The position numbers and the translations under genes are program-made. DNA of 61,871 bases, the filler included, from Hausera hauseri (lineage: Eukaryota), in assembly GCA_046269625.1 (NCBI GenBank). It is 11 parts of 11 records of this genome, joined end to end, with 100 filler letters (N's around TTAATTAATTAA, not from the genome) between each part and the next. Parts side by side here need not be neighbours in the genome. Positions count along the whole stretch, not along the records: positions 37,895 to 46,136 come from JBJURY010717657.1; positions 46,237 to 51,543 come from JBJURY010284503.1; 9 more parts are not named here. One strand, given 5' to 3'. Below the pieces are notes generated by a model. That model saw nothing but the letters and a program-made list of their open reading frames with translations. It was not told the origin of the DNA and searched no databases. Shown here one piece after another: positions 1-51,543 of this stretch (the stretch's first letter is position 1; the number at the start of each line of letters is the position of its first letter).

Positions 1-3000
1 CAATAATTTTCGGATGAGAACTTGGTTTCGGCGTGAGGTGGAAATTCGTTGCATTGATACGGTTTTTCCTGAATGGTTATTGACGAGAATCTATAAATAT
101 TACCCAAGGTAGTATTTGCATAAAGTTTAATTGGGGTTGTCGCGTTATTAGCTAATCTGATCGGCACCCGACCCGAAGCAACTCTTGTTAATTCGTTACT
201 GAACACGATATTCGGATTTCATGTCTCCTTTGGCTCGACATATACTGGTCATCATCTTGACGAATTTGTGCATAAAACAACGTGTCCTTGTTGGAATATT
301 TTCATCTACCTGAATTGACATTTTTCCTAGTTTCCTGTCCTTTATATTTTATACTTCTTTTACTGGTCCGAGCTCTATTAATTTCCCAACATGGAAATCT
401 AATGCTGCATTTGGTAGTTATCTCAATAAATCACATCCTAATACTACATCGTCAGTTAGTTATTCCATTATGGAGAATTCGTGATTAAACAGTTGTCCCA
501 TCATATGCATTTCGGGGTTCCATTTATATTTACGTCTCAATGACTGCTCAAAAACTCTAAAGAAGCCTCAGTATGTTGCTAATGTGGATACAAGTGTTTA
601 CGCAGATTTTAATTGTCTTTGATAAATGACATCTCATATCGTGCATCGATTAAGGCATAGATTTCCTAGTCTTCAAGTCGAACCTTAACGAAAGATCTTC
701 ACTCTATTATTGTTCCGTAATGATTTGATGCAACTTTGGGTTGTTTTACCGTCGATACTTTATATCCGTTAATTCTAATCTCAGTGGAAGTGGCTGGTTG
801 GTTGGTTATTTGTTTTAGTTCCTCGATTGCATATACATTACTATTTACGCAATCAATAATTTACGTTCCGTGGTCCTTTATTATCTGTTGTTGTTCCTGC
901 TTGTGCAATAAATTATGGTCCATGATTCTTGAAAGTTAACATTTCCTGGTTTCGCAGATTTTCGCAAGACTTGGGTATTCGTGAATATAATATTCTATGA
1001 TTATCAACCGGTTGGCATTTGTAAGGAACAGACATTTTTCCTGCCTCATGCATTTTTCGTAATACACCACAGTGTTTTGTTCCTTCGTAAGGGACCCCGA
1101 TTTTTAATGTTTTTCTATAAATTTCCATTTGATATGTACTCTTTGATTGTTTGTCACAATTTTTATATACAGGTGCTGTTGGATGTAATATAAGCAACGG
1201 CAGTTTTATGACTGAATATGCTTTATGTCTATTTAATTTGGAGACGGCGACACTTCCCTTAGGCTCATCATCAACTGAATCATTCCTGCGCATATATCTG
1301 TTAATGATTTTCCGTCCATAATTGAATGTCAATTTTCTTCGTCTCTTACGGTTATGGTACCCAACATGCCGTTCTACGTCGCTTTTCCATTTAATTTTTT
1401 CGTAGGCCTTTACAAACTTACCAAAAGTAGTTATAATCTCAGTTAAAATTTTGCGTGAAAATCCTGTCAGTGCTTGAATTACGGCCTTGATTAGATATAC
1501 TAAGAAGTAAATTGACAAAAGTCCCTAGGCTACCTCTCCGAAGATTACGAATGTTCCCCAGATTTTGTATAAGATTTCTGTAGTTACCCCTTCATAGTCA
1601 TTGGTACCACGTAACGATTCCCATATTGCTTGATAACAGGAGTCTCCTATAATTGCGTGTAGGTCGATTCAGTTCATTCGTGCGTTGACGTGGAAATGCA
1701 AAAAAATTATCTAAATGCTTCGAATTCTCTAAGTCTATATATACCTTTCGTCGGCGTATCTTGAAACTTGCAGTCGGTTATCCATTTTACCAAAGTGGTC
1801 CGTCAGCTTTCCTGGTGCAGTGGTTAATCCTCCATTTGGTAGGTCTATACACTCAGTTTCACTACGTCTGAATATAGATTTTTCCAGACTCGCATTGCAT
1901 TCCTTTAGTGTCGTTGGTTGTGTAGAATTTGCAAGTGGAACTATGGTAAGTGGCATTGCCAGGCTTGATGTATTCTGATACAGCACCGGAAGTTCTTGCA
2001 TGTATCTTTTTTCTTCTACGTTAATCGAAATATCCTTTTTCTCGCATTCACAAGTCATTAAGACTTCACCCGTGACTCTACCGAAAAATCCTTCTTTCAT
2101 TGGAATTGTAGGTGATACTAACTCCGGATTTGCGTATATTAGTGCCAATTTGGTTTTCATAAATTTCATGTCCAATTTACCATTGATCGTTATCATCTTG
2201 TGATATAACTCGGTTATTCCTCGGTTACTGACCTTTATAATAGAAATAGGCGCCCCGATTTTGCAGGTAATTTTCGATTCGTACATCTTGTGTTTCTATC
2301 TTAAATAATTTAACATATCTCATTCTCTGCTGCAAAGAAAGCTTCATAATTGGCGGCATGCATCAGCACATCGCATTTCGTACGACATCCTATATTCGAT
2401 TACTGTTGGTAGGGGCCAGTTTATTTCTCATGGTAATTTCCTTGCAGCACTTTGGACTAGACTAATGGCCTTGTCGAAATCATTTTCTCTCGCCGGGTTT
2501 GTTTTAATCGCTTTCTTAATTCTTCTGTGATATTTTCTACTATAATCTTATCCATTAGAGCTTCATCTGTTAAAGTGCTTTTCGATAATTTAAATCGGGC
2601 ATTTTTCATTTTTTGATGCACTAAATATAATTTTCGCCTTTTCCTCCACTACGTCGCCTCAGAATAATTTACAATACATATCAAATATTTCATTAACTCG
2701 GTTAATCCTTCGTTTCCTAAATTAAGGGTGGGTATGGACTTTTGTCTCAACTCTTTAATTAAATCTCCGTTATAGTCGGTTTCTTCTCTCACTTTCCTGG
2801 GCCTTCCAACCCGGCGTTTCGGTTTTGTCTTCATCGTCACATGAATTTTGAGTGGGACTAAATTTATGTCGTATTGTTTGTTGTCCGCATCTCTTTGTAA
2901 GTTTTCAAAATGTGGACTCCCAATATTCGTCCTTCACACTGTTCAGTTCTGGCCTTACGTGTGGCCTCTTATTTAGTCTCATCAATTGCGACTACGACCA

Positions 3001-3130
3001 CTATACGATTTGTTTTCCGCGGAATAATTTCGACATCGATCATTAGTTCCAATTCGTCTAGTATTGTACCTTTAAAGTAGAGTCGGTAATTTACTTCGTT
3101 ATCCGCATAATTATTTATTAAACAGTTTGC
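1..3130 (-). mobile_element. Decayed copy of env-before-pol Ty3/gypsy element (family A): UBL/AT-hook region, internally deleted glycoprotein, tail, protease
   Basis: Minus-strand translations match the 21918-29203 copy: RLYFKGTILDE (~3050-3090), KPKRRVGRPRK (2649-2840 ORF), KTKLALIYANPELVS..GRVTGEVL (1735-2286), HPTAPVY (913-1518), EIYALIDARYEMSFI protease remnant (~620-670). Confidence 0.85.
1735..2400 (-). pseudogene. Chuvirus-like glycoprotein fragment (C-terminal ectodomain)
   Basis: Collinear and highly similar to the 24713-25357 ORF; contains stops and frameshifts. Confidence 0.8.
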
Positions 3131-19440: not shown

Positions 19441-22400
19441 CACTTTAATTTCTCAGTATTACATTTGTTACTTAGAATACTGTTGGAAGAAAAACATCAA
19501 CATTCACATTTCTAGTACCAAAAATTACCGTAGCACATTTATTAAAAATATTAAATTAAAATTCGTATAGTTAGTGTTAAAAATTAAAATGCATAATTCT
19601 AAAAAATCATTTTGGGATTTTATAACAAATGGAGAAATGTACGAAATATAATGTTGATAAATAACATGAAAAGATTTAATTTGTTGTCAGAAAATGATTC
19701 ATTGAAATTTGTGCAAGCCCCAGAAATTATTGTCTGGATAGTAATAATTAATGCTTTGTGTTACTTACTTTGGCTGGAATCCGACTCAATTCTCATACAA
19801 AATACCATTAATTAATACCATTATATATGTAATCGTATCCTACTCCATTTGACTTCGATTATATCTCGGAAAGGCATTGACTACTGTCGATCTGATTGAT
19901 AGATTTCAATTTATAGAAAATTTGTAGAGAAAATATTACTTGTAAGATGAAAATGGTAAATTTAATGGGAAACTAAAAATTATGAAAATTTTAAATTTTT
20001 ATTCTGATTAATAAAACAAATGACAAATAAAATTCATCCGATAGTCAGAAACATCCACAAACCAACAAAATTCAGTCAGTCATATCCAGACGGACATCAT
20101 CCCAATTAGACATTTGAAAAGAAGTAAAATATGAAAGTATTATAAGTTTCATAACGAAATAAAATATATTTTACAAATTAAAATATTTTTTAGCAAAATG
20201 AACAATTTTTTCCAATCGTCTTCGTAAAAAATATCGAAAATTTTTCGAATGTAATTGATCGTCAAGACGTGGAAAATTTTCATATTCCATCCTATAATAC
20301 TCTCGCAGCTCTTTTAGGAATTTCATACTCAAACGAAGCCATGAATTACATTTAGAAAACTGGTCCAACGATTTGCATCTGTCGACACTTGAATATGACT
20401 TACTCAGCCGAGAAATGTAGTGCCACAGATAAGTCTCAATGCGCAAATTGAAATATTCGCATGTGAGTGAGCTGATAATAACGAAAAAGTCAGTATGGCA
20501 TAATGAATATATTTTTGAATTTAAAAAGTCCACAAGATTTGTGATTTCTGATGTATGTTTATTGGAAGTTGAATCATCACCGGTATGAACTGCAAAAAGT
20601 ATTTCTGACGTTCGAATTAATTTACATTCCTTGTCGGACCAGGACGTTTATGAAATGAACTTTAAACAGGCTATTTTGAAATCCCTTGATGTTGCATTTG
20701 ATAAAAGAATTTTTACCAAAGAATATCCTTTACCGTTGACATTAATTTCACATAACAATGCATTAGATAAGGTTGGTTGTAAATGAGGATTACAAATTAC
20801 AATCAATATGATTTTGAAATTGTCTTAATTCGTACAATATGGGCATAACATTAAACACACAAAAGTTAATCGGTTGGCCATTATTGAAATTTGAAGAGGA
20901 ATTTCATATACGAACATTTATTATAAACTAATATGTACATCGTCTTTGGGGCAGCAAATCAAATTTAAATAACATGATATTAAACGTTCTAAAAATCGAC
21001 CAAATCAATTAAAAACGAAGGAATCTTATTATGTAATCTAACTTTCTAACTCTTACCGTCTATTTTTTCTTCCCGTGGTTCAACTTGTTGTTCAATATGT
21101 CTATTCATCTATAGCGAATAAATTGGTTCGGTAGTACTAACAATGGGCCGTCTTTAAATTTTATTAAGATTTCTGTTGACTATTAAGGAATACCAATGCT
21201 TACCAATTAAAGAGTCAACAGTCTGATCCTTAGGCAAGTTTACTCGTAAGAATTCTCAGCAGCAATATTGTGATCAAAATTTTGCTTTTTGAGTTTTTTG
21301 AGTGTTTCTTCCTAAGATTAATTTATATACTAGTTTCGTACTCGGTAATTTATTTATGCCCGTCAATTTTATTTATTCTAATGGTTTGATTTCTATATCG
21401 TTGTAGTTTTATTTATTTGCATCTGTCAATTTTATTTATTCGTAAAACCATGTTTCTTCGCCATCGCTTTTGATTTTTGCAATCGACTGGGAATAATTTA
21501 CTTATTCTATGTCAAAATGATTAATGGAACTTCATGTTCTTCTTGGGTAGTCAAATTTTAAAATTTCTTTCAATTGACATTTTGATTAACGAGGTTTCAT
21601 TGACTTGGGTAGGTACAGGATTACATTTTGGATAACCGTTTTCTTTAATTTAGTATATCTAATGTATGGGAATAATTTTATATTTTCTGGGTAACTATTT
21701 TTCTTTAAAATCTTCTATTATTAGTGTGAGGATATAATGGAGAACGGAAATTCTAAATTTAAATTAGAAACATTTTTAAATTTTAAAAAAATTTAATTTA
21801 AAAGTGTAATATTAAAANNNNNNNNNNNNNNNNNNNNNNNNNNNNNNNNNNNNNNNNNNNNTTAATTAATTAANNNNNNNNNNNNNNNNNNNNNNNNNNN
21901 NNNNNNNNNNNNNNNNNCGGTGAAATTCTTACACCAGCCATAAAGATGGATGGACGGAAGGGATCATAGACATCATACTGAACTAATTAAAATAAAGAAT
22001 GACCACCACCTTAGCTTCGAAGAGATCAAGTTTGTAAAAAAATTATTAGACGCGATAGACCCGGATTCAAAGAGTATTAACGAGATGTACGAATTAGCAC
22101 TATTGATAGCAGAAATGGCAGAAATTAGTGACGAGAAGCTAAGGCAACTGTTACAGCAGATACAGCAAGTCGAAGAAACTTGCATTAAGACGAAACAGAG
22201 AGCGATAAGATTAGACGAACTAGCTAGAGAACTCGAAGTGTATAAAAACAAATACGCCCTTACAGAAGCCGAAAAAGCTGACGAGTCACAATTTATTCAA
22301 GATGGCAAAGAGATGTCACGTCTGAACTAACGAAATATCAAGAAAAAGGATTAATTTCACCCGAGGAATTATGTTCATTGTTAACACTGATCCACCAAAC

Positions 22401-23775
22401 GTCCGCTAATGGACGATGTTTTCGAACGACGAAAATGGTCCAAATGCAACAGAAACTACAATAACTCAGAGAAATTACATGGCCCGCAGGTGTAGATAGG
22501 CCAGCAGATACACTGTCAAGGACTTACCAACTGCCGGATAATGAAAATAAACCCGATTGGGAAGCCTATTTAGATGCAATGATAACAGAGAATCCGAAAA
22601 CCCCAATACATTTAGACGAAATTGAGATATATTTTCCAGACCAAAGGTTTGATGTAGGGATGATTTTGGACTCAGCAGAAACCGAGAAAGATTTAACTCA
22701 GCTGATCAAGGTAAATCTCACTGAAATTCAATTAAGACGGTTAGTCCCCACTCTAACTAAATTAGCTAGCGAAGGTACGATCTTCAATACAGTACGTAAG
22801 CTTTTACTCAAAGAATATGCCAAAATCCTAACAAAAAAGTATAAGAGGCGATTCTAGTAAAAATAACATCAGACTGGATGGACGAAAAGGAACAAGAGTA
22901 AAGGATGTATTACTGTGGATAAAGAATAACGGATACGCCCATGAGCTGAGCTACAGACTTTATTTCGGAGGAAGAATACTAGATGAGACAGAATTATTGA
23001 TAGAGGTTGGAATTATCCCAGTAGAATTAAACCGATTAGTGGTAACTACCGCTATCGAGGAAACAAAGGAAAAGGCTATAAGAAAGGTTAGAGCGGAACA
23101 ACCAGTAGGACGAATAATATGATTCCGAGATGCAGCAGTATATTTCGAGTACCTGCAGAGAGATGAAGATAATGAGCAATACGATAAAAATTTAGTACCG
23201 ATCGACGGCAGTGTACCTGCTATAACAAAACAAAAGCGTCCTGTCGGCAGACCACGGAAAATGCGGGAGGAGATCGACTATAATGGAGACTTAATCAGAG
23301 AATTGAGGCACATGTTCATACCGACCTTTAATGCGGATAATAAGGAGCTGAACGAACATAAGAAAAATTTGCTACGAATAGTAAACCACTCTAACCTCGG
23401 TGGTAATATATTAGACGAGAAGAAGGCCATAGCGAACGCCGCAAAGGCCATGAAGAACCTTCGGTGTAAATGAACCAAAAGTACTTTAAGCGCTGAAACG
23501 ATAATCGAGAAATTTATGGTAGAAAATACCATAGAGGAACTGAGAAAAGTGTTGCTATATCTGGCCATCAAAACCAATCCTAATCGAGAAAATGAATTTA
23601 ACAAGGCTAGTAACTTGGCAAGGAAGGCCGCCAGGAAGCTACCCCGAGAAGTGAACTGGTCTACGTTATTCGAAAAAGAGGAAGAACATCAAAGTGGATT
23701 CTTCTTCGATAACAATAGATTCGGAGATCTGCTACGAAATGTAACTGGAAATTGCAGAGGAAATGAATCGAATTG

Positions 23776-25600
23776 GCTAATTAATTTTTTGACCATGATG
23801 ATGTCAATAAGGCAAATAGACGCAGTCACGGTATATGATTGTGACAAATTTAGACTTGGCCAAAAATATTTGTTAATGGACTTGAAAATGTGCTAAGATG
23901 CGAGGCCTCACAGATTAGAAACAAAAGAGAAAAATTATATATTATATCAACAACGTGAACTAGTTACGCTGGATGGAGTAGAATGTATGTTACGGCGATC
24001 TCGCAGTATCTTCCATTGTGGACTGGTACATGGACACTCGTCAGTAATCAAGCCAACAACACCACTAATTCCGATAAATTTAGAACGTCAGCATTGTAAG
24101 CAAGCTAGAGAAACGGGGGGAACAAAATGGGACGGTATGGAACTGGAAATGCAACGAGGGAAAATAATCAGAGTGTACAAAGTAGCTGCAGGAATTTTGG
24201 ACATGCACACCGGACATTGTTATGGTGCGGAATAGGATACCGGAAAGGGATTAGAGTCAAACGTCGTGGTAGTGGATTTTTACGAAACCGAAATGCGTAT
24301 TCAGAAAGTGATGCTTCATAGTATTACTAAATTTTACACCGAGAACCACAAGTGCCATATTCAGGATGGCACATGTCCGTTTCGAAGTTCCGTAGTAATT
24401 TGGGAACCCCCAGCCAAGACCGATTGAAACTTTATCAGAATTAAAGAACTTAAATTCAACGAAACTACAGGAAAACGATACATAAGTAGCACAGAAACTA
24501 ACTCTAAAACAAGAGAAGATGTAGCTGAACAGTCTACACTTACTATATTAATTTCTGATACTCATGGATTAAAATTTGTAATTAGAGCTATGCTCACCAG
24601 ATGCGACCTCATAATGTATGACACCAACTATGAAGCATTTTTCGTAGCCGAGACAGAAATAAACACCAGAACGTTCAAACTCTAGACTCAGGACATCCGG
24701 ATTGAAGATTATTTGAAGAACAGAGACGACTATTTCTACTATAAAGGACAAGCTGAAATAGCCGAGTTGTATCACAAGATGATAACAAATGACTGTAAAT
24801 TAGATCTGGAAATCATGAGAACTAAGCTGGCCCTGATATACGCAAACCCCGAGTTGGCATCACTAGAAATTCCAATGAAGGAAAGTGTTTTTGGACGAGT
24901 AACCGGAGAGGACTTATTGACCTATGAATGTGAAAAGAAAGACGTACCGATTAATGTGGAGGAGAAGAAGTGTATACAAGAACTCCCAGTGATATATCAG
25001 GACCTACCAAGATTAGTCACACCAATTACCACAGTGTTGTTGGCGAACGCCACTCAACCGACAATTTTGAGAGACTGCAAAACTAGCTTAGGAGAACCAA
25101 TGTTCCGACGTAGCAAAACCGACTGGGTAAGTCTACCGAACGGCGGCATTATCGTACCACTTACCAAGCTGACAGGAACGAACCTAATAAAAAGACTAAC
25201 CGATGACAAATTTCAGGATACAGCCGCAAAAAGTACTTACCGACCAAAGGAAGTGGAGGAGTTTAGACAATTTCTCGCTTTTCGCCGCCAACGTACACAC
25301 GAGTTTAATAGAGCGATGAATACAATACTAGAGGATTCACGTTACCAAGCGAAATAGGAGTCATTACTTGGTGTTAGCTATTATAAGAAGGTAACTACAG
25401 AAATATTATACAAAATTTGGGGAAGATTTCTGATATTCGGACAAGCCGAGTCAGGATTTCTAGAAATATACTTCTTAATTCAACTAGTAAAAGCTATAAT
25501 TCAAGCAATGATAAATGGATATGAGATATTTACTTTGACAGGATTCTCGTGTAAAATTTTAACAGCTATTATTACACCTTTCGCTAAATTCTTAAAGGCT
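23776..25600 (+). pseudogene. env: Chuvirus-like (class III) envelope glycoprotein
   Basis: Signal-like WLINFLTMMMSIRQIDA then VTVYDC..KYLLMDLKMC; C..HCG..GHSS; CKQA; GRVTGE..C..C.QELPV; C-terminal WGRFLIFGQAESGFLEIYFLIQLVKAII..NGY..GFSCKIL, matching the recalled chuvirus G pattern. Confidence 0.8.
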
Positions 25601-26289
25601 TATGAAGAAAGTAAATAGAAAACAAATATGGAGCAACATGTGGGCTACCATAATCGGAAACGCAAAAGACACATTCGATTATAGACAGAAATTCATAGCC
25701 AGTAAGACACTTAGAAATAATTCCGATGATGACGAGCCTAAAGGAGGAGACATCATCACCAGGCCGAGTAGGAACAAAAACTACTCTGTTATGAAACTAC
25801 CATTACCAATATTACCACCAACGGCACCTATATACGAAGATTTCCAGAAGCAATTTATGAGCTCGTGCCAGACAGACATCTATCGGAAGCCGTTTAGTTT
25901 AGAAGATCCTTACGAAGGAACAAAACGCTATGGGATATTGCACAAGATCCACGAAACAGAGAAGACCTCGGCTCCACGCCATCAATCAGCAATCGACTAC
26001 CACGGCATATTTTACTCACCTAGAATACCTAAGCCAAACGAAACGCAATCGATATTTACTCGAAGCTGTGAGACTCAAAATCTCCGAAACCAAGATGTTT
26101 AGTCGCCGGTTAGGAACCCAAGAGTAGAAAACACAAATGGTACGAATAACGAATTATACCCAATCGGAGAGTTAAAACAGTTAGCCGAGCAGCCAGTTGG
26201 AACCACTGAAGTTATCATCAACGGCTGCAGTGTCTACAATACGACAGCCCAAATTAACACCACGTTATTACGGTACAGTAATCGATGGT

Positions 26290-29203
26290 GGGCCCTTCGC
26301 AAAAATTCAACTGAAAGATTGGGAAGTTTACGCGTTAATAGATACAGGATCTGAAATATCACTGATAAAATATGATTCGATCCCGCAGTTCCTACGGAAA
26401 CAATTGTATCCACCTCCCACGACAGACCCAGGAAGCATTAGAGCTTTCGGACAGTCGTCGAAAAGTAAATTCCGTTGGGAACCACAAATTCACATAATGG
26501 GACAATCTTTTCGTCATGAATTCTCAGTAATGGAGCAATTAACAGATGATGTAGTGTTAGGATGTGACTTACTGAGACAATTACCCAATATAGCAATCAA
26601 TTTCAATGCATGCAAGCTGATAGAACTTGGCCCAATATTAGGAGTCAAAACCACCAAAGATAGAAAATTCGGAGAAGTGTGGATTCCAGTGGATGAAACC
26701 ATACCACCCAGAACAGAAATTCTAATATATGCTCAGATACGTCAGGATGACGATCAGCCAATATATTTCGAACCAAAGAATCAATCGATCCAAACCTTGT
26801 GCTCAGCAATGTTTTGACAAGAGTATCAACAGGCCTCGTGCAAATCAAAATAGCAAATAACGCACCAATCCAGATCAAACTCTATGCCAATACCATATTG
26901 GGACATACGTATAGAGTACCATCAATTACTATCGGAGAGAAACTAACGTTGAGACTAAATTTTCGCCAGAATCCTATTGGCGATTTTACGAATTACATTG
27001 TCGTTATATTTCGATTATCGCGAAAGATGAAGAAAATATTGGTCGAGCCAAAACCTTAAGACTCACAATCCCACTTAAGAAAAAGCCTGGATCCAACGAC
27101 GAAATAGACTTAGAAGATCAAAAGATGCCGAAATGGTACCCCTCCACACTCGTTAAGATCAGAGATAACCAAAGAGGTTGAAAGAATGTTAAAGACCGAC
27201 ATCATAAGACCAAGCTATAGATCTTGGTATTCTCCTATACTTATGGTCAAGTAAAAAGGTACCAATAAACACCGATTCTGTACTGACTACAAAGCCTTGA
27301 ACACACTTATGATGAAAAACTCCTTCCCATTACCATCGGTAAAGGAAGCTTTGGATAGACTTTTGGGAGCTAAATGGTTCACCGCACTCGATTTACAATC
27401 CGGATATTGGCAAGTAGAGATAGAGGAGGAAGATCGGTACAAAACAGCATTTAAGACACACGACGGTATATACGAATTTAATGTAATGCCTTTTGGAATC
27501 ACTACCGGACCAGTCATCTTTACCCGTATGATGAACAAAATGCTAATGGGACTGGAGCACGCATTTGTCTATTTGGACGACGTTATGATTGCGTCAAAAA
27601 CGGAAGAAGATCATTTAAAAGACATTGAAGGTACACTTATGAGACCAGAACAGGCTGGACTGAAACTGAATCCCAAGAAGTGCAAATGGGCTCAAAATGC
27701 TGTGTCGTACCTTGGACATATAGTAGAAGGCGGATCGAAGCCGGATAAGTCATTATTAAGTAAGATATCGGATTGTATGGGACCTCAGAATCAAAAGGAA
27801 TTAAGACACTGGTTAGGTCTGCGTGGATATTATGCAACCTACGTACCGAATAACGCAAAGATAAACACACCTTTGTATCGGTTACTTAAAAAAGGGATCA
27901 AATGGAAATGGACCGATGTCGAACAAAAGGCTTTTTATGAAATGAAGAAAATTCTAACTAGTAAACCTGTTTTAAGATATCCTGACTTCAACTTACCGTT
28001 CATAATCAAAACAGACGCCAGTAAGGAAGGTATTGGATATGAATTGGCTCAGAAACGAGAGGACGAGGAGTTAGAACACCCAATCGCATATGGAGGGCGT
28101 TCTCTAAAGAAAGATAAGAAGAACTATTCAGTAACAGAGTTGGAAACGTAGGCAGTAAAAGAAGCACTGCGACATTTTAACGTATATGTCTATGGACAAA
28201 AGATTATAATCGTCACTGATCATAAAGCAGTTACGAATTTGAAAGATAGAGCAAATAATCCAACGTGTAGACTAAACAGATGAATAGAGGAAATTTCACG
28301 TTGTAATATTGAATTCCAATACAAGCCCGGAAATAAACATGTCGATGCCGACGCATTATCGAGACTTAAAACCAAAACAAGCGCAGTTACAGTAATGAGG
28401 AAAGCACACCTTGAAGATTTAGTACAAAGACAACGGATTCTCACACTAGATAAGGCATTAAGGATTGCTGTCGAACAGAAAAAAGACAAGGTTATACAAC
28501 AGATTATCGAGTACGTTGATACCAACGTAACACCAAAGGATCATCAGATACTAAAACACCTACAACGATATGGTCACAAATACTGCGTCGCTGGAGATTT
28601 GAACCACGAGAATGTGTTATACTACGAACGAAAAGGATGAAAATTAGTTGTCATACCAAAAGGATTGCGTTTAGAAGTATTAATGGCCAAACACGATTCG
28701 TATTTGGCCAGACACATGTCATGGAAAAAGACCCTAGTAAGAATCTTGAATAAATATTATTGGCCAAGTATTTACATTGATGTGAGAAATTTGGTGAATG
28801 CTTGCGAAGTATGCGCAAACAAACAAAGAAAAATGAAAAACTACATCGCCGAACTTAAGCCTATCGACGTGCCCGATAGACCAATGCAAGCAATGTCTAT
28901 GGATATTGTAGGACTATTGCCTACGACCCACAAAAATAACAAATACATTTTGACCTGTGTGGACCAATTGACTCATTTCGTGGAGCTTATAGCGTTACTA
29001 GACCAAAAGGCCGAGACCTTGGCAGAAGCTGTGGTCCGGAAAATCATTTGCAGATACGGGACACCCGAACAAATCTTGACAGACCAAGGAAGAAACTTCA
29101 CGAGCAAATTGTTCGACAAAATTACCAAAATTTTCGAGATTGAACGATTAACTACCACAGCTTACCATCCCCAATGTAATAGAATGGTCGAACGAATGAA
29201 CGC
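26290..29203 (+). pseudogene. pol: Ty3/gypsy pol: protease, spacer, RT, RNase H, integrase
   Basis: ALIDTGSEIS; FTALDLQSGYWQV; MPFG; VYLDDV; TDASKEGIG; H..H..YYWP..CEVC; MDIVG; ILTDQGRNF; TTAYHPQCN. Confidence 0.95.
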
Positions 29204-29303: not shown

Positions 29304-32284
29304 AAAATCGCTTCTACTGCGACAAGGCAATACACCAATCTGGAAAATCGTATTAAAATTGAAGTCGAAAAACGGTCGCAGATATATAGTCTAAGGAATA
29401 GGATGATGCATCCAGCTGACAATGAAACACAGAAAATAATTATAGCTTGTATCCTCGAATTCGATGAATATAAAGACAAGTTTGACTATGCCTGCCGGAT
29501 CATCGATGTTATTAGAGGTCCGGATGATGAGCTAGAAGACTCCCGTAAAATGTTAAATAATGGGATCTTAGCGAAGCCAGAAATCGCTAATCAATTAAAT
29601 GAGTGGTCCAAACTAATAAAGAGGTTGAGTAAATTAGTGGCAAATAGAACGGAAGAGTTTCTGGAGAGTGAACCTACAGTAAAGAAGCAGTTGGAAGAAG
29701 GCGCCCGAAATTTAGATACAATGAGAGAAGAAATCGATATTCGAACCCAATTCGAGTCACTGCGTCAGTTGGACTTTATTGAGAGGAAACAAGAAATGAT
29801 GACACTAGATGACATATATAAAATGATAGAAGAAACAAACTTTGCACAAAAACGAAATCGGATTCGTGACCTCTATCCAAGATTAAGAAAAGTCCGCTTA
29901 GAAGGAATTCAGAATTTGACCACTGGAGAGCCTATAGAAGAAATATCGGTCCGTGATCTTAAGACTGTAGACGTTTGTCCAAATTACCAGTCGACCCTTG
30001 AAGAGGTAGTGACATTCTTACATCAATCACAGGAAAGGATGGCTGGAACTGATCAAAGGCATCATACCGAACTAACTAAAATAAGGAATGACCAACATCT
30101 TAACTTCGAAGAGGCCAAGTTTGTTAAAAGATTTCTTGACGAAATAGACTTAGATTCAAAAATTATCAATGAGATGTATGACTTAATACTACTGATGGTG
30201 GAAATGGCAGAAGTCAGCGATGAGAAATTAAGACAGCTGTTGCCACAGATACGACAAGTTGAAGAAACTTGCATTAAAACCAAACAGAGCGATGAGATTG
30301 GACGAACTAGCCAAAGAGCTTGAATCGTATAAAGTTAAGTATGCTCTTACAGAAGCAGAGAAGGTTGACAAGTCGCAATTCGTGCAAAGATGGAAAAGAG
30401 ACATAGCTTCCCAGTTAACAAATTATCAGGAAAAAGGGTTTATATTTGCAGAAGAATTACGCCAGCTGCTAACCGTATTACTCCGAACTTCCGGAAATGG
30501 ACGTTGTTTCCGAACCACACAAATGGTTATAATGCAACAAAAACTACGAGAACTAAGAGAATTAGTAAAGGAAGCAAACTTAGCCCAGCCGTTAGGAACT
30601 CCGGAGGCCGACTTCGGATTCCTCGAAGATGAGAACGAATGGGAAGCGCATCTGAATGCAATAATCGCCGAAAGCCCGAAAAGTCCCGTACACTTGAACG
30701 AAACAGAGACGAGTCCATCAGATCAGAAATTCCATGTAGAAATGCTTCTAGACCCGGCACAAACTGAAAAGGATATATTTAGGTTAATCAATGTAGACCT
30801 TACTGAAAATCAATTAAGACGGTTGTTCCCCACTCTAACCAAATTGGCCAGCGAAGGTACCGTCTACAGTGCTATGCCAAAACTTTTAATCAAGGAATAT
30901 GCGGAATTTTTGAGGACCAGGCCCGAAGAGGCAATTAAAGTAAAAAAAACGGCTGACTGGATGGAGGAAAAAGAACAGGAGTTCACCACGCGCTCCCTTG
31001 TAAAGGATGTACTACTATGGATAAAGAACAATGGTTACACCCATGAGCTAAACTATAGACTCTATTTTAGAGGAAGAATACTAGACGAATCGGAGTTATT
31101 GATAGAAGTTGGAATTATTCCCGATGAGATAAACCGGTTAATGGTAACTACAGCTATCGACGAAACGAAGGAGGAGGCTATAAGGAAAGCTAAAGCAGAA
31201 CAACAGGTAGGACAAAGACTAGGAGTCCGAGATGTAGTAATATACTTCGAGTACCTGCAGACAGACGAGGATAATGAGCAATATGATAAAAACTTGGTAC
31301 CTTTAAACGGCAGCGTACCCGTTGCAACGAAACCAAAGCGTACTGTGGGTAGACCACGGAAGATACGAGAGGAAAACGACTACAATGGAGACCTAATTAA
31401 GGAATTGAGACAAATGTCCATACAGACCTTTAGTGCGGATAATGAGGAACTGAACGAATTGATGAAGGATTTGATACGAATAGTAAACCACTATAGTCTC
31501 AGCGGTGATATATTGATGAGAAAGAGAAAGCCATAGCGAACGCCGCAAAGGCTATGAAAGGTCTTCGGTGCAAATTATCCAGAAATACTTTAAGTGATGA
31601 AGTATTGATTGAGAAAATTATTATAGAAAATACTATAGTGAAATTGAGAAAAGTGTTACTCTATCTGCCCATTAAAACAAACCCAAATCGGGAGAACGAA
31701 TTCAGTAAGGCCACTAGTTTGGCAAGAAGGGCTGCCAGAAAGTTGCCTCGAGAGGTGAACTGGTCTAAACTATTCGAAAAAGAAGAAGAACCTCAGAATG
31801 GATTCTTCTTCGATAACAATAGATTCGAAGACTTGCTACGGAATGTAACTGGAAATCGTAGAGGAAATGAGTCGAACGGGTTAATTAATTTTTTGACCCT
31901 GATAATGCTAGTAAAGCAAATGGGAGCAGTTACAGTATATGATTGTGACAAATTTAGACTTGGTCAAAAATACTCATTAATGGACTTAGAAATGTGAAGA
32001 CGAGAGACCACACAAATTAGAAACAAAAGAGAAACATTACGTGCTATATCAACAACGCGAACTAATTACATTGGATGGGGTAGAATGTATGTTGAGACGA
32101 TCTTGCAACATCTTCCACTGTGGATTGGTACACGGACATTCATCGATAATTAAGCCTACAACGCCCCCGATTCCGATAAATTTAGAACATCAGCATTGTA
32201 AGCAAGCGAGAGAGATGGGAAGAGTAAAATGGGACGGCATGGAACTGAAAATGCAGCAAGAAAAAATACTCAGAGTCTACAAAA
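29304..32284 (+). mobile_element. Third family-A copy: long N-terminal polyprotein region (helical, UBL, AT-hook) and the first ~130 aa of glycoprotein
   Basis: ORFs 29403-30323, 30259-31536, 31554-31997 and 32041- are joined by frameshifts and align with 21918-24180. Confidence 0.85.
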
Positions 32285-32954
32285 ATATCAGCTGCAATAC
32301 GACTTGTACAACACGTATCCCGGAGAACGAAGCATCTATCTGAAAGGATATTGTCCAAAAATCGGAATATGGAAGTTTCCGCCTCCAACCACGACGACGA
32401 GACCGTCCACTGCTCCGAGCACAACTTTCGCTACTACAATTGCCACCTGGGATGGACTAACCGAAGAAAAACGAGCTAGTATACCTATCAGGATTTTAAC
32501 AAAAAGTGATAGACTTCTATTCTACACTGAAGAAACGTTAAATTATGACGTTAAAATTGAATGTCGTACCCTGTATACCAATCAGATCGTGATCTTAAGG
32601 AAGAATAATCCGGAAGCAGAATGTTAATCATCACGACTGCAGCACGAATGTATAATCAGAATCGCTGCAAAGGGTAAGAACCCTAAAACTTATGCAGTGC
32701 GCACTCTGAATAACAAAATGGAAGTAATGCGGTATAAAGGTCTTAGTACCCAGAGCGTGTTCACCACGAATAGTTCCATCAAAGAAAACAATTTACCGAT
32801 AATAGCTATATTTAGTTTGTCAATTTTCGTTCTTGTAATATTAATAGCGACGATTTTTCTAGTTTCCAAAATTTGTAATAAGCGCGATAAAAATCAAAAG
32901 GGAGATAAACGGGTAAAAGGGTATCGAGACGGACCTTATGATAGCATAACCTAA
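32284..32954 (+). pseudogene. Type I membrane protein remnant (Thr/Pro-rich stalk, TM, basic tail), unknown function
   Basis: PPPTTTTRPSTAPSTT; one in-frame stop at 32625-32627; TM LPIIAIFSLSIFVLVILIATIFLV followed by SKICNKRDK. Confidence 0.55.
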
Positions 32955-35603: not shown

Positions 35604-35653
35604 AATAAATTACTTCATAGTACTACGAAATGTTAAGATACAGCGGATTTTAT

Positions 35654-36889: not shown

Positions 36890-36959
36890 TTGTCTGTCTG
36901 TCTGTGTGTCAATCAATCAATCGACAATCGTACGACGACGTTTGTTTATAGCTGATGAA

Positions 36960-43354: not shown

Positions 43355-44983
43355 ATGATGAAACTTCTGAAAGAACCTGATACAGAACCGATTAAAGAAT
43401 ATGACGATATAAGTGTCGACCTGGATAAAGAAAGTTCAGATTCAGATGGTTCTACAAATACCGTGGTTCCCAACCCTAAACGAAGGGTTGTATCACCCCA
43501 ACATGAGTTTAAAAGGAACATTATGACTACAAACCATCCCGAACAGATTTTACCACCCTTCACTTTCAAGAACCCGTTACACATTAATCTATCAAGAGGA
43601 ATTTTATAAACAGAAAGCATCAAAACAGGTCAATTTAAACCGCACCACGGATTAACTACTAAAATAAGACTAAAATCATTAACGTTTGATGACCTCACAC
43701 AGCAAGAAAAATCAAGACTCCAAGATCAATTAGTTGAAAATTTGAATGAAATGGAACATGAAAGAATTATTAACAGATCATGGGATGAACTATGCAAAAA
43801 ATTCATAAAAATTTATGAAGTAGGACGCAGCTTATTTCCTTCTAAGTTTCACAATCGAATTCTGGAGTTAGCAGAACATTCAACTGATTTAATCTATCCA
43901 GAATGTTGGTACATCGATAATGGTCTCAAAACTATGACCATAAACAATCGTTTATATCGAATTTTGACTATATCCAGTCCATTATATAATATCAGTCTCA
44001 ATGCAATGCTTCATTTACATTCACCTTTCGAAAAGGTCATGTTACACTTAGCACGAGGAAAAATCCAGTTCCGTACTGAGATAGATGTGTACGAAGCTTC
44101 AAATCTTCGAAGTACACTAATAAATGCTAAAACATCCATGAGAACTAAATCAGCAGCATTTGCTGCTCAAATCTATTTTAAAATACTTCAACAACCAGTA
44201 ATACTCGATTTTGAAATATGCCAATATATGGATGAACAATTGGGCTTAAAACCTCCAATATTTTATCAAATACCAAAAGGGTTAAATCTGAATAATTATA
44301 GGCTAACAACAGCCTTTAATTATCGATACTTATCAGTTTCGTTGGCATATGTTTCCAACGGCGATATTATACCAATCGAGGTAATAATATCCGATCACAA
44401 CAAACTCCAGGTATATCAGACCTACATCAATCCTCGCAAAAGAATTGCTAATACAAACGGACATCACCACGGTTTATCAATGGAAATCATACAACAAGCC
44501 CAAGACAAAGAAGAGGTACGAACAGAGACAATTAAATATCTATACGGTTACACGATAATAAGTGCTAACACCAGCACAATACTGAAGGCATTACGTATAC
44601 CCCTAAATTTCGCCTATGGAATATTCGATATCCTCATAGCAGAAAATACAAAAAAACGTTTTAACGAAATGGGACTAAAAGTTAATCTAACCCAACTTCC
44701 TAAGGTCTACAACTTGCAGTACGAATTCCCGAAGTCAGCAGAACCCATTATGCAGGCTATAATGGAGATTCGTGGTTACTTTTCTAATAATTGTACTAAT
44801 GAACAATGGGAATGGGAGTGGACTCCACCAGATAACAATTTAATTAATGACGACAGATTTATGCAAATACCGGTAAAGTATCATTTGGATTATCAATACG
44901 AAAGAATACGATCAATTCACGAACTACAACCAATAGCAACCGAATCAGCTATTCAAGAATTGAAAAATAACACACTTTGCTAA
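43355..44983 (+). CDS. Intronless ORF (one premature stop at 43607) with a C-terminal inactive DEDDh/REX4-like exonuclease domain
   Basis: YLSVSLAYV..EVIISD....VYQTYINP......HHGLS.E.IQQA...EEVR..IKYLYGYTIISAN...LKAL follows the REX4/DnaQ pattern, but the DxE and GHxxxxD positions lack acidic residues. Confidence 0.6.
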
Positions 44984-46801
44984 AAAAGCAAAAAGTGAAC
45001 AAATGATTCAAACAAGGGAACTTTCAGTACTAATCTAAGGACAAACACATCAAATAATCAATGTTCGGTTTATACAAAAAGCAACAGTGACTATAAATCA
45101 ACGCAATCAAATCCAACCTAACTGCAGGTTTGGATGAATAATCGGAATAATATACAGACATTCCGTGCATAATACATTGCACCTAGTAATTGTTGGTGCC
45201 CATCTTGAGACCATCAACAGTCTCGATCATAAACCGGTATTGGTAAATCAACCAATACAGATGCAATTAGACCAAGTACCTATCCGTAAACCCAGGAGTG
45301 AGAAAGCAATTAATCTTCGAGGAACTACCAAGGAAAAATTGAAAATGCTCCTGTATCAATGAGGCCATCAGTTCACTTTAGAAAATTTATTCCAAATGAA
45401 ACAGAAAACAGACGATATGACGGTAAAAACGTTGACATCATGCGTTTCAAAAGTTGATCATTTTCTTTTTGTTTCATAAGGTAACTGAGGATGCCAATGT
45501 GCTTAGTGAGATGAATTTCCTTAATCTCGATACAAAAATATAAAGCTTCCTAACGTAACCAAGCTACCTGAAATGCTGGATTTCGATATGTAGAGATCGT
45601 TAGAAATCTATCGCGTCATCAATTGTCTATTAGATTCGATCTGTGCCTTAATTTCATTGTCATCAACAGTCACTGGTATTTCTGAATTTTGCATATCTTT
45701 CACATCAAAATCTCCAGACCGCAATTTCGCAACCAATTATGATACTGTCAAAATTTTAAAGAATTATCTCCATATACATCAAATAATTTTTGTGAGCTTG
45801 CATAACCGTTAGATTTGAAGGAACAAAGTTTGAGACGCGAATAAGTAACAATCTGTTCTTGATTGAAATATTCGATATGCACAATAACTTCATTATAAAA
45901 AATCTCGCATTACTCTAAATTTTATATTGTGATATGAATTTAATGAACATCACTGGTACCTGCTATATTCAATTTGTAAGGTATTACCCTCACAAAATAT
46001 GACATATGGGCATTTAGACTATTCAACTTATAAATTATAATCGCTTCTTTCCCAAGCTCACCACTTCATTAAACCGCATCTTTTAAAGCCGTCAGTGAAA
46101 TTACTTAATGTTCCTAACATATATTTATTCATGCATNNNNNNNNNNNNNNNNNNNNNNNNNNNNNNNNNNNNNNNNNNNNTTAATTAATTAANNNNNNNN
46201 NNNNNNNNNNNNNNNNNNNNNNNNNNNNNNNNNNNNTTCAGACGGAAGCCAAGAGAAGAGGTAGGCCGAGAGGAACGAAAATAAGCGACATACGCAATAG
46301 GAAAGATAGAAATGAAGAACTAGTAAGACGTTTATTACTAACAGGAACAAATGACTCCCCTGAAGCACTGGACATAGATCCTTTACTAAGAACATCATTT
46401 GCTTTATTCGACACGCAAGTTATAATCCCAGATGAAGTATTCACTACGTTAGGTAGTAGTATGCTGCGAATAAGTAGACAATTCTACGAGAATCTACATG
46501 AAGAAAGGATAAAGGAGATACACGACTTGGATATTCTGAAAAAGATGTTGGCTACAGGAATTACACAAGAAAAAGCTCAAACGGCTATATCTTATCTGCT
46601 ATATAAGATAATAGAAATTAAACATCAGACTCAAAATCTAGAGGAGATTGACCGAAATATAAAGACAGCCGTGATGATTTTAAAAGATACTCTGGGAAAT
46701 TGGGCTCAATGTAGAAGTGGCTGACTGAACAGCTTGACGACTAATGTGATGATAGACCAGTTGGGACACAATCAACTACTTCTAGATCAGGTATAACAGG
46801 C

Positions 46802-48660
46802 ATGTTGATAATGGCGATTATAAAAATTCTATTGATAACATCATTGCTAATGCCGAAATCCGTAGGTATAGTGGCGTACGATTGTTCTAAGCCTACTGAA
46901 GGACAAAAGTATTCTCTAGTTGACTTAGAAAAATTCCCAGAAGCCGATCCAGAACAGTTAACAACTACCAGTGGCCTTACATATTAGGTGCACCAATAGT
47001 GAATTCATAAAAACAAAGATTAGGGAATGTTACGTGAAAAGATCGTTCTTTTTGTTTAATTGTGCCTTCTATTGGGGAAACTCGGCCATAATTGAGCCTA
47101 CAACACCTTTTGAGCCAATAATAATATCACGAGCAGAATGTTAGGATGCTTTTAAGATTGGCATTATAACTATACAAAATTCACACATTCCAGCAGTAAG
47201 GAACAGAATAAAATATACAAGGATTTTTAGGGTAGGAAGGATAGATAAAACAATGGAAGGCATTTGTAAAGGAGTAGATTATGATGTCGGAGGCACCATC
47301 GCACCTAGAACAGTAGCCATAGAAAATTATCAGGTACAACTGAAAGAATATGAAGGATTATTTGATTCGCAAACGAAGTTAATGACGACGATGAGTGACT
47401 ATGAATACAATAATGGTGAATGTGATAAAGGAGAGTCTAAAATTACATGGGAGACTCTAGCAAGTAAATGCCAATTAACACTGTTAAAGAACGGGAAGTT
47501 TAACAAGACAGTAGGAAAGACAGCGGAGAAAGAGACGGCGACATATAAAGAAGGAACAAAGGAAGTTAAGATGACAGAGGTAGCTACAATTGTATACTCA
47601 GAAAATCCAGAAGAAATGATGACATTTAAAGTTGTGGGAGTAGTAAATAAGTGTGGCGAAGAAATATCCAAAACCAATTATAAAGGTATTTTATTATCGA
47701 GAAAAGAAGTACCCGGAGCGAAAACTAAAATAGATAAGAAAGATATTAAGTGGACCACATACTTTGATTATAAGATCGATTTTCTAATTAATTAGGTAAG
47801 GAAAGAAATTAGGGGTTGATATCGGGAGATAATAATGAACGATTGTAAGCTGAACTACGAAATAATGCGTAATAAAATGGCACTGGTAATAACAAATCCA
47901 GATATGGTATCACCAGTACTACCCTTCGTCGACGGAGTTATTGGAAGAGTGCGGGGTGAGGTGCTGATAACAATAGAATGTATGAAAGTGGAAGTATCAG
48001 TTAGACCCACGGAAGAATGTACAACGGAACTACCTGTCGTTTATCACTCAGAGGCCCGATATGTTACGCCAGTGACTAGGATATTGTTAGATATTAATGT
48101 AAAGCCTACTTCACTATACAATTGTACTTTTAATATGTCACCAATGTTAAGATCGACAACGATAAATGGATAAGAATGCCGAAAAGAAAACCGGTTCCAA
48201 ACCGGAGACATTAAGTTTGATTAACTTACAAAGGAATCAGAAGTTCGAACCATTAACAGGAATATCGCAGGGAGGAATTTATATCCAACAAAATTTAGAA
48301 GACTATCGACGGATATTGTTGTTCCCACAACAAAGACAACGAATAATAACCGAATTAACACGGAGAGTAATGTGGGATGACGAAGGATCACCACAATGGG
48401 AAAACCTTATGGGTAAAGACAATTTAAAGAAGGTAACGAGAAACGTAATGGAAAAGATGTGGGGAAAGTTCATATATTTTGGTCAAGCCGCTTCCGGCTT
48501 TCTAGCTATTTATTTTATAATTAGCGCCCTTCAAACAGTATTTACGGCACAAGGTAAAGCATGTGGGATACATGCCGCAGTAGGATGCTCATGGAAGATT
48601 TTAATAGCGGTAGTACCGGCAGTAGCGAGTTGCTTCTTAGCGAACCATGACGCACGATGG
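46802..48660 (+). pseudogene. env: Chuvirus-like envelope glycoprotein (family B)
   Basis: MLIMAIIKILLITSLLMPKSVG|IVAYDCSKPTEGQKYSLVDL; GRVRGEVL..C..CTTELPV; GGIY; MWGKFIYFGQAASGFLAIYFII..GCSWKIL. Confidence 0.85.
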
Positions 48661-48999
48661 AAAAGGAAGATATTACAAAAGAAAGACATAAAGGAATCTC
48701 CGTATAGTATACCTGATAACGATGATGCTGAATATACTCAGATGAAAGCAAAGAAACGAGTACCCATTATCAAACAACTAGTACTTAAGACGCGGAAGCC
48801 TGAGTATAGACAGAAGCTAATAACCAACCTGCCTCGTTTGGATCCTGTAGATGAACATCATGGACAAATGTATAATGAACACCGTTAATAAATCCTTCAG
48901 CTCCACGATATGTAGTACATGCAGGATTATATCCTACTCAACAAGTTCAGCAGATGAAACAAAGTCTTGATGAACGTGAATTCACATAACTATTAACGA

Positions 49000-51543
49000 T
49001 AAAAACGAACGGCAACCCCTATATGACCTGAAATAGAAATAGAAGTGAATAGATACCACATGATGGCTCTGTTAGATACTGGATCAACAACGACAATAAT
49101 GGGAAGAAGCCAATTGCCAAAAGAATTAAAAAGGAAGTTGCGAAGGCCAACTACTACACTAGTGAACGTAGGAGCATTCGGTACCGAAGAAAAAATCAAA
49201 ATGGTCCTGGATGCCAAAATTAAGATTGGTTAACAAACTTTGAACCATACCATAAGAATAGCCGATAATCTGACTAACGAAATTTTAATGGAATGTGATA
49301 TATTAAATCAATTGGAAAACGCGTATATAGATGTGAGAACATGTCAACTTAAGACGTTCGGTGAAGATCGTAACGAAGGAATTGTCTCACTAACTAAAGA
49401 CATTACGATCCCACCACGATATGAGATAATAGTCCCGGGAAAAATAGAAAGTCGAACGTTACCGGAGATTATTTATTTTGAACCACTTCCACAAGTTATG
49501 GAAAAATATGAAGTCCTAATCGCCCCTCACGTAGATAAAGTTAGAGATAGAAAAGTTCATTTACGCATTTTTAATACGACAAACAAAGAAAAACGATTAC
49601 GAAAAGATACTAGATTGGGAAAAGTAACAAGAACTGAAGAAACAACCAAAGAAGAAACCTGCTCAGTAATATCAGACGTAGATAAAATAGAAAAGATGAT
49701 GACAAAAAAGTTGAAAAAGAAACCAGACGAAGACAAAGAAAATAAAACCTCGAATATTGACTGGAACGAAAGGTTGCAAAAATGTGAAATTCTAAGTAAG
49801 GAAGAAAAGAAAATGTTAGTTAAGTTATTAGAAAAGAATGCCAGTCGATTTGCACAAACCGACTATGACCTCGGTACCATGAAAGTAATACAGCATGTCA
49901 TTAAGTTGAAGGACGGACAGGACAAGCCAATTAAGAAGAGACCGTATCGACTGGCATATGATAAGAAACAGGAAGCTCGTAAAATAATAAAGGAAATGAG
50001 AGAAAATAAGATAATTCGACCAAGTTGCTCTCCATGGACAGCGCCGGTAGTAATGGTTAAAAAGAAAGATGGAAGTATGAGATTCTGCATAGACTATAGA
50101 GCTTTGAATGAAATAACGGAGACGGACACATATCCATTACCAAGAATTGACGAGATACTAGATAAATTACATGGATCAACCATATTCACAACTATCGATC
50201 TACAAAAGGGTTATTGGCAAGTGGAGGTAAAAGAAGAAGATAAACCCAAGACAGCCTTCTCAATCGGAGAAGGGCTATGGGAGTTTAATAGGATGCCCTT
50301 TGGATTAAAGAATGGATCACCAACGTTTCAGAGAGAAACCGAACTCCTACTGTTAAATGCTCCACACGCCATGGTTTATATAGACGACGTAATAATAGCT
50401 TCGCCAAATTTTTAGCAGCATCTAAAGAATTTGCAGGATCTCTTTGATAGATGCAAGATAATGGGTTTAAAGATAAACCCAAAGAAATGTTCATTTGCAC
50501 AAACAGAGGTAAATTTCCTCGGACATAAAGTAGACAGGCATGGTGTAAAATCTCAGGATAAACTCTTAGGAAAAATAAGAGATTTTCCTAAGCCAGGTAC
50601 CGTTAGAAAACTACGTCAGTTTCTAGGTTTAGCAAACTATTATCGAAGATTCATAAAGGATTTTAGTAAAATTGCGAAACCTCTGTATGAGTTATTACGT
50701 GAAGATTTAGATAAAGTCATCTGGACCAACAAATGCCAAAAAGCTTTCGAATATTTAAAAGATAGATTATTAACGGCTCCTATATTAATCTACCTAGACA
50801 TGGCCGAACCATTTATTTTGGCAACAGACGCAAGTGATTACGGAATAGGAGCAGTATTATCACAGAAGGGTGAAGATGGAAAAGAATATCCTGTGGCCTA
50901 TGATTCACAAATAGTTAATAAGCATCAAAAGAAATACGCGGTAATAGAAAAAGAGTTATTAGCGGTGATATTTGCTCTAGAAGTATTCTCACCATATATT
51001 AGTGAAAATAAACAGCTTATGATTTATACAGATCATAGACCACTCCAATGGCTAAAACAACATGAAAACCCAAATAGCAGGCTACTACGATGGGCTCTCA
51101 AGTTACAACCATATACATTGAATTTTCAGTATAAGTCTGGCACGCGAAATGCTAATGCCGATTACCTATCGAGACTACCTGACAAAACAGAAACGAAGGC
51201 AGTAGTTGCAGCCGTATGGAGTATGGATGGATCAGTTGAAAAAATTAAGATGAATCAAGATGAAGATATCAAAATAAGAGCCATTAGGAAATATATAAAA
51301 GATAAAATTATATCAGTGGACAGAAAATTAACCCGTCACCTGGCTCGATTCAGTGAAGCGTACGAGGAAAAGGAAGGATTTCTATATTTCATTAGTCAAA
51401 ACGGACCAGCATTAGTAATTTCTAAGAAAAATAGAACAGTTTTGCTAACCCAATACCACGATGGATTGCTTGGGGGACACCAATCAGCCAATAAGACACT
51501 AAAATTAAAACGGAAATATTTCTGGCCAACGATGACGAAAGAC
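49000..51543 (+). pseudogene. pol: Ty3/gypsy pol (family B)
   Basis: LDTGS; SPWTAPVVMVKKKDGSMRFCIDYRALN; MPFGLKN; YIDD; TDAS; TDHRPL; YHDGLLGGHQ..KYFWPTM. Confidence 0.95.

Follow-up and report, generated by a model that had tools for sequence, protein, structure and literature searches.

How does a fusion glycoprotein of the type found in negative-strand RNA viruses come to stand in front of the polymerase of a retroelement, and what does it mean if two diverged families share this order? The question is raised by positions 46237-51543 of a 61,871-nucleotide stretch from the genome assembly of Hausera hauseri (GCA_046269625.1), hereafter the window, in which an earlier inspection of the DNA (the sequence-only reading) had described two retroelement families, A and B, with the same succession of AT-hook, signal peptide, glycoprotein (G), membrane anchor, tail and polymerase (Pol). 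According to our analysis, 46237-51543 is in all probability a broken Ty3/Gypsy retroelement of the Burro-like GAG-ENV-POL kind, the envelope (Env) of which probably stems from one capture from a lineage of negative-strand RNA viruses and the working members of which are likely read as one polyprotein that threads the membrane of the endoplasmic reticulum (ER). The family B copy itself is dead.

The 62-kb window consists of 11 short contigs joined by identical N44-TTAATTAATTAA-N44 linkers, and neighbours across a linker need not adjoin in the genome. The interval 46237-51543 is exactly one whole contig of 5,307 bases, which holds a single decayed Ty3/Gypsy copy (family B) on the plus strand. 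Three-frame translation combined with Pfam resolved, in this order, a GRPR motif, a helical domain, a signal peptide, a Monjiviricetes-type G resembling glycoprotein B (gB), a hydrophobic anchor, a tail, protease (PR), reverse transcriptase (RT), RNase H and the start of an integrase. The succession of PR, RT, RNase H and integrase together with a gypsy-type RT places the element in Ty3/Gypsy (Metaviridae). Both contig ends lie within the coding region, and the 5' Gag part, the integrase core and the long terminal repeats (LTRs) lie outside the contig. The copy is broken by 8 stops across five counted segments and by several frame changes; anchor, tail and Pol share a common frame.

The nature of the glycoprotein is evident from the Pfam profile PF24664 (Monjiviricetes_fusion), which matches the main frame of family B at E 1e-33 when stops are read as X. 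Moreover, four successive pieces match it in colinear fashion (profile positions 4-46, 134-312, 330-421 and 452-625 with E 0.005, 0.007, 8e-19 and 6e-27, respectively). The match starts at the signal peptide, which has a hydropathy of 2.65 over 15 aa at 46805 and a position common to related polyproteins, and the conserved cysteine columns of G are present. Hence, family B shows what characterizes the GAG-ENV-POL gB-type errantiviruses, namely a gB/chuvirus-type Env with signal, cysteine pattern and anchor, situated upstream of Pol. Word-indexed homolog searches with the family B G as query gave no match at E 0.001. The peptides quoted in the sequence-only reading were all found again, IVAYDCSKPTEGQKYSLVDL from 46868 and GRVRGEVL near 47943 in family B, and those of family A in two copies (VTVYDCDKFRLGQKYSLMDL in the one at 29304-33328 and GRVTGEDL in the one at 21918-29203).

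In family A, the order from the motif onward is the same as in family B, and in copy A1 motif, helical domain, signal, G and anchor share a single frame, with stops. The families are indeed clearly diverged, as had been stated: the identity between B and A1 amounts to 31% over 380 aa in G, 33% in the PR region and 39% over 548 aa from RT to integrase, and blastn yields only two short matches at the DNA level. The claim of an identical order needs a restriction, because A and B have no significant sequence similarity in the helical domain of approximately 160 aa that separates motif and signal; hence, the identity of order holds only for motif, signal, G, anchor, tail and Pol. The motif itself, GRP[RK], occurs exactly 4 times in the six frames of the window, once each in A1, A2, A3 and B and always in the same slot, 193 and 203 codons upstream of the G start in A and B. 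The same motif is present in 5 of 16 related proteins (four distinct 90% clusters), at a distance of 97-224 aa ahead of the start of G, compared to 0.04 expected. The motif is a genuine feature of related elements, not a universal one. No Gag match was obtained by Pfam in the pieces of the family A upstream open reading frame (ORF1) that were examined.

Evidence for inheritance comes from relatives. A full HMMER search with the A1 G as query resulted in 531 proteins at E 0.001, with long polyproteins as best matches. G, protease and RT (Pfam) stand in one unbroken frame in P0050, P0125, P0126, P0136, P0137, P0273 and P0278, and G is followed by a protease in P0124, P0128, P0129, P0131 and P0132. 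Among the 16 best G matches, 10 proteins are longer than 1000 aa and nine of these have a protease after G (8 by Pfam, P0130 by a motif where the sequence is cut); the remaining one, P0135, stops at the anchor. Upstream marks of Gag were found as Retrotrans_gag in P0132 and as a CCHC knuckle in P0128 and in P0138, the closest G relative of family B (paired at 100/98 in the G tree). An independent protein search with RT listed at least 120 proteins, 7 of which share with A and B a segment before YxDD that is two residues shorter; P0042 also has the short segment but is not part of the clade. The RT tree comprised 35 rows, taken from clade candidates and a thinned set of other gypsy RTs. A clade of 17 rows at 97/97 includes A, B and every one of the nine elements in which G was shown to precede PR, with A and B as a pair at 85/83. 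The G tree comprised 29 rows; a branch at 100/100 separates the 16 rows of polyproteins from ten stand-alone or BEL-type G proteins, and A and B come together with P0138 at 88/62. Furthermore, G and RT identities are correlated among the 8 elements with both domains (Spearman 0.75, Mantel 5/5000).

The domain order is inherited and not a product of chance. The two families, previously taken as distant lineages, are likely sisters and, hence, would record one capture and not serve as two independent witnesses. "Ancient" can be retained only as a relative term; the order is likely old. The second half of that claim, maintenance by selection, is supported for family A. Pairwise ratios of nonsynonymous to synonymous changes (dN/dS, Nei-Gojobori) between real family A copies, with codons at stops and gaps dropped, ranged from 0.11 to 0.27 where estimable: 0.11 and 0.22 for ORF1, 0.18 for the ubiquitin-like segment, 0.14 for motif plus helical domain and 0.12 (95% interval 0.06-0.22) for signal plus 5' G of A1 versus A2, compared to 0.97, 1.40 and 1.09 in wrong-frame controls. 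For the 3' G of A1 versus A3, the proportion of nonsynonymous differences (pN) was 0.17 with silent sites saturated, and silent sites are near or at saturation already within family A. G and the cargo slot in front of it are under purifying selection in family A. With regard to abundance, all 30 bins of the family B contig were covered in two public runs, by 20,848 and 2,514 short contigs with at least 85% likeness, of which only 1% and 5% continue into unlike DNA. This fits a large repeat family carrying both G and Pol, although depth is not copy number.

Table 1. Features of the family B contig and copies of family A, in positions of the window.
Feature	Family or copy	Positions	Strand	Remarks
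AT-hook-like motif KRRGRPRG	B	46251..46274	+	read directly; DNA binding putative
Bcl-2-like helical domain	B	46281..46748	+	in-frame stop 46722-46724 within BH2-like motif
Predicted internal signal peptide	B	46802..46867	+	frame differs from that of the preceding domain in this copy
Monjiviricetes-type (chuvirus-like, gB-type class III) fusion glycoprotein ectodomain	B	46868..48486	+	interrupted by stops and frame changes
Two hydrophobic segments (membrane anchor region)	B	48487..48642	+	hydropathy 1.76 at 48487 and 1.91 at 48586; within PF24664 match
Basic tail after anchor	B	48643..48888	+	Pol frame in this copy; followed by ~140-nt stop-containing stretch; read directly
Retroviral-type aspartic protease (LLDTGS)	B	49030..49320	+	Pfam Asp_protease_2 and RVP, E about 5e-5
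Conserved PR-RT intervening segment	B	49378..49635	+	slot of Burro's dUTPase-like domain; aligns with L001 29%, L002 23%
Ty3/Gypsy reverse transcriptase (YIDD)	B	50056..50532	+	RVT_1 E 2e-21; segment typical of the clade, shorter by two residues than in most other gypsy RTs
RNase H	B	50797..51114	+	RT_RNaseH E 5e-37
Integrase zinc-binding domain	B	51421..51543	+	Integrase_H2C2 E 2e-9; truncated by contig end
Copy A1	A	21918..29203	+	ubiquitin-like segment, GRPR motif, helical domain, signal, G, anchor, tail, PR, RT, RNase H, integrase
Copy A2	A	29304..32290	+	long upstream ORF1, motif, helical domain, signal, first part of G; 76% DNA identity to A1
Copy A3	A	73..3088	-	motif, part of helical domain, internal deletion, 3' G, anchor, tail, PR region; 64-67% DNA identity to A1

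The sequence-only reading had no comment on the helical domain, which in family B is placed directly before Env and is likely Bcl-2-like. It is homologous to the same slot of P0138, P0124 and P0127 (z 53, 9.9 and 6.5; 0/500 shuffles each). The assignment is based on the agreement of three moderate lines. Of five aligned members, four match Pfam Bcl-2 (E up to 1, with 2.3e-5 as the best value); no such match was obtained for the copy in the window. The profile of the domain matches the Bcl-2 homology 2 (BH2) region of Bcl-xL in a PDB profile search (E 0.01-0.07, ranked behind two unrelated repeat matches). Finally, all Foldseek matches listed for the AlphaFold2 model (pLDDT 66, pTM 0.62) are Bcl-2-family entries, with BOK as the best (E 0.008, probability 1.0, TM about 0.5). 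The corresponding model of family A has a pLDDT of 46, its fold matches are meaningless and the hhalign probability is 0.3%. Further upstream, the ubiquitin match of P0138 is weak (E 0.03), and the family A segment resembles that of P0138 weakly (z 3.2-3.4, 5/500 shuffles) without a Pfam match. We can tentatively propose, as a rather doubtful idea, that the region from Gag to Env acts as a cassette for exchangeable cargo in which one part is fixed, namely the conserved AT-hook-like motif, which would tether a Gag-derived product to AT-rich chromatin or RNA. The adjoining Bcl-2-like domain, anchored by the Env signal peptide, would then have persisted in family B and disappeared from some relatives; in family A it would have been replaced or have diverged so far that it is no longer recognizable. 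If true, such a retroelement would couple genome targeting and apoptosis control to the biogenesis of its envelope. The Bcl-2-like and AT-hook-like cargo offers testable handles on a possible manipulation of the host cell.

How a working element might use this arrangement can be outlined from its anatomy and from general knowledge on signal peptides and class III fusogens. The parts in front of the signal (Gag, ubiquitin-like segment, AT-hook-like motif, Bcl-2-like domain) would not leave the cytosol. The internal signal peptide would direct G to the lumen of the ER and be removed immediately ahead of the xAYDC start, and one of the two hydrophobic segments would stop the transfer and let the chain return to the cytosol. 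If Pol is cytosolic, only one of these two segments can cross. In the cytosol, the protease would free RT, RNase H and integrase. The leftover signal would act as a tail anchor for the Bcl-2-like domain, the likely effect of which would be to dampen apoptosis in the producer cell. G, in turn, would let particles fuse with neighbouring or germline cells. An alternative, which we regard as unlikely, accepts the same element and proposes that G is translated from a separate message, spliced or with an internal start, and not as part of one membrane-threaded polyprotein. It is consistent with the signal peptide of family B, which begins with its own Met codons, and with some relatives in which Pol is found in an ORF separate from G (P0030/P0127 and P0037/P0128, paired only via source records of equal length); moreover, a 1:1:1 ratio of Gag, Env and Pol is unusual for retroelements. 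However, G, PR and RT stand in one unbroken frame in seven relatives, and Burro is described as in-frame in the accessible text of PMC6431247. Polyprotein and separate-message modes can also coexist.

The single capture of the envelope has to be weighed against convergence, in which A and B took up similar glycoproteins independently or G was swapped by recombination. This would agree with the helical slot, which cannot be aligned between A and B, with the different depth of A and B in the G and RT trees, and with the report that GAG-ENV-POL elements are not monophyletic in the POL tree (Chary and Hayashi, PMC13524379, as far as accessible). Nevertheless, convergence is improbable, given that A and B have the short RT signature and one RT clade in common, that their G nest within one retroelement G group apart from stand-alone G, and that the GRP[RK] motif precedes the G start at similar distance in both. 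The third possibility, a chance nested insertion of an endogenous viral element or an assembly chimera, was rightly considered unlikely before and is by now largely refuted, with next to no probability left: in its favour, linkers connect the short contigs of which the window is made, and the G-Pol joint is not spanned by any of the contigs listed, but the same order exists within single contigs for A1, A3 and B and in unbroken public single-ORF polyproteins that belong to the RT and G groups described above, and G is under purifying selection in family A.

Several points weigh against the favoured reading of an inherited Burro-like element with a once-captured envelope. Gag, LTRs and integrase core of family B would lie beyond the contig, and topology, cleavage, fusion and anti-apoptotic activity are all predicted. 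The Foldseek E-values for the family B model are weak, with none at 0.001, and the family A slot is helical but gives no Bcl-2 signal by sequence, profile or low-confidence model. The dN/dS values cover family A only, as family B has one copy in the window, and among the public-run contigs listed none spans the G-Pol joint, where depth is lowest. Furthermore, the G-bearing rows came from the G search, so that their share of the RT clade is inflated. As to whether relatives of these RTs carry G upstream, all nine G-before-PR elements fall into the RT clade; among the 7 clade members found from the RT side, 1 has a fused G, 2 were matched to a G ORF only via equal-length source records, 1 has another membrane module before PR and 3 are without assignment. 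This other module, of P0035, is a different combination of signal, ectodomain and anchor directly before PR; it occupies the G slot and resembles by eye the module after the integrase of the same protein, and may be an envelope replacement. The anticipated congruence of G and RT trees is supported by the correlated identities and by the single groups formed by both domains, but not in every respect. In an eight-row set, P0050 conflicts between the trees (approximately unbiased test 0.006 and 0.017, groups named post hoc), a conflict that is gone with more rows. A and B, two decayed copies with long branches, still take a deeper position in the RT tree than they do in that of G.

A metagenome scan from the RT side, for which 80 of 526 loci were kept, found only L001 and L002 within the clade; their available sequence is without upstream DNA and, hence, uninformative on the adjacency of G and Pol. 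The sole G-like match among these 80 loci, L062, lies outside the clade and shows a G-like ORF, a Gag-like ORF and then Pol in 54-9237, an ENV-GAG-POL order that has been reported in mites (Chary and Hayashi, PMC13524379, accessible part). Some further observations concern the relatives. Tandem aspartic-protease domains are present between G and RT in P0273, P0128, P0124 and P0126, in P0273 also after the integrase; P0273 is a 4,844-aa ORF with ankyrin repeats and C2H2 fingers. P0125 is a complete G-PR-RT-integrase retroelement polyprotein deposited as hypothetical protein of a Flavobacteriaceae metagenome-assembled genome, likely animal DNA binned with a bacterium. In copy A2, G breaks off near 32290 and a small type-I-membrane-like ORF with a Thr-rich stalk and hydrophobic anchor is found at 32202-32951 (+). 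A comparable membrane module follows the integrase in the clade relatives P0030, P0031, P0035, P0037, P0038 and P0125, so that A2 may be internally deleted; sequence similarity of these modules to the A2 ORF was not found. The contig preceding that of family B, across the linker, contains an open 457-aa frame at 43610-44983 (+) without Pfam match. It resembles an accessory ORF downstream of Pol in the clade loci L002 (E 3e-6) and L001, and a three-row profile including it matches ISG20L2/ISG20 DEDDh exonucleases at E 5e-12, with catalytic motifs eroded by eye. It probably represents an accessory gene of exonuclease-like type, located at the 3' end of another element of this group.

The remaining window holds further fragments and repeats. 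A PDZ-domain fragment at 4361-4876 (+), apparently intron-free and decayed, with InaD-like, DLG4 and LNX2 as best PDB matches, lies upstream of a gypsy integrase fragment (6229-6960). Tc1/mariner transposase fragments (helix-turn-helix and DDE_3) were found at 8451-9301 (+), a fragment of protein-primed DNA polymerase B at 9476-13610 (-; DNA_pol_B_2 E 6e-10), and an unrelated gypsy element with RT, RNase H and Gag-like ORF, outside the A/B clade, at 38880-41365 (-). By eye, the region at about 35200-37550 (-) resembles Maverick/Polinton capsid and protease fragments, with no Pfam match in the two pieces scanned. Repeats include a 197-nt inverted repeat of 86% identity at 18843-19440, a 66-nt dispersed repeat at 19136, 34163 and 34754, and a tandem repeat of ~155 bp in three copies at 51679-52127.

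Which known systems come closest? The nematode NERVs, which are not known from other hosts, reportedly have a flipped Env-Pol order and a glycoprotein captured from an RNA virus by a metavirus. They are not known to carry Bcl-2 cargo. The NERVs (Sacco et al. 2022) are cited by Chary and Hayashi (eLife, PMC13524379), who, in the accessible text, describe GAG-ENV-POL gB-type "ancient errantiviruses" in Nematoda, Bryozoa and Platyhelminthes. Like A and B, these combine a Ty3/gypsy Pol with a chuvirus/gB-type Env before Pol, and their Env broadly follows Pol in divergence; they are intact, whereas family B is decayed, and the accessible main text does not mention Bcl, ubiquitin or AT-hook. The mosquito Anakin elements carry a chuvirus glycoprotein (Dezordi 2020; Dezordi 2023, PMC10084718). 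As far as these accounts are accessible, Anakin is similar in that the same glycoprotein family (PF24664) was taken up by an LTR retroelement, but it belongs to BEL/Pao and family B to Gypsy. In our G tree, P0151 (BEL-type, DUF5641 then G) groups with stand-alone G and not with the polyprotein G group. Troyka (PMC12440569) was also considered and set aside, as nothing in its accessible description points to an Env-before-Pol order.

The closest counterpart is the planarian Burro or GYPSM1, a giant gypsy-like element, in which, according to the accessible part of the review, a single ORF encodes Gag, a Ubi/SUMO-like domain, BCL2, an Env with mononegaviral fusion-protein matches, PR, a dUTPase-like domain, RT, RNase H and integrase (Arkhipova and Yushenova 2019, PMC6431247). 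The same text gives a length of over 30 kb and an ORF1 of ~4,900 aa with MATH, BIR and ankyrin domains, and mentions high copy number as well as decayed copies. On this description, Burro agrees with the polyproteins of our relatives in an Env with mononegaviral fusion-protein matches in frame between Gag and Pol. With family B it shares a BCL2-like domain directly before Env (at moderate scores in family B), a segment between PR and RT, high copy number and decayed copies. The Ubi/SUMO-like domain before BCL2 would be a further likeness, with the corresponding region of family B lying outside the contig. No AT-hook is named in the accessible part of this review (PMC6431247), and an AT-hook-like motif was not found described for such elements in the literature searched; Grohme 2018 or Sacco 2022 may mention it. 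Family B, likened by description only, differs in that it appears compact between Env and RT, with one PR; no MATH, BIR or ankyrin domain was seen by Pfam within its 5.3 kb, and a three-row profile of its PR-RT segment gave no PDB match to a dUTPase. The novelty implied by the sequence-only reading does not hold, since this layout is already in print, as the accessible texts show (Burro, PMC6431247; GAG-ENV-POL, PMC13524379). Hence, the layout is not new, and family B is a decayed, compact Burro-like element. With our analysis, the Burro-like group gains two families of a single genome that are deeply split, at about 30% identity in G. Moreover, it provides direct numbers for matters that were mostly asserted: the RTs form one clade, so do the G proteins, and in family A both G and the cargo slot are under purifying selection. 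It thereby supports the view that such elements are endogenous viruses for which the envelope has long been useful.

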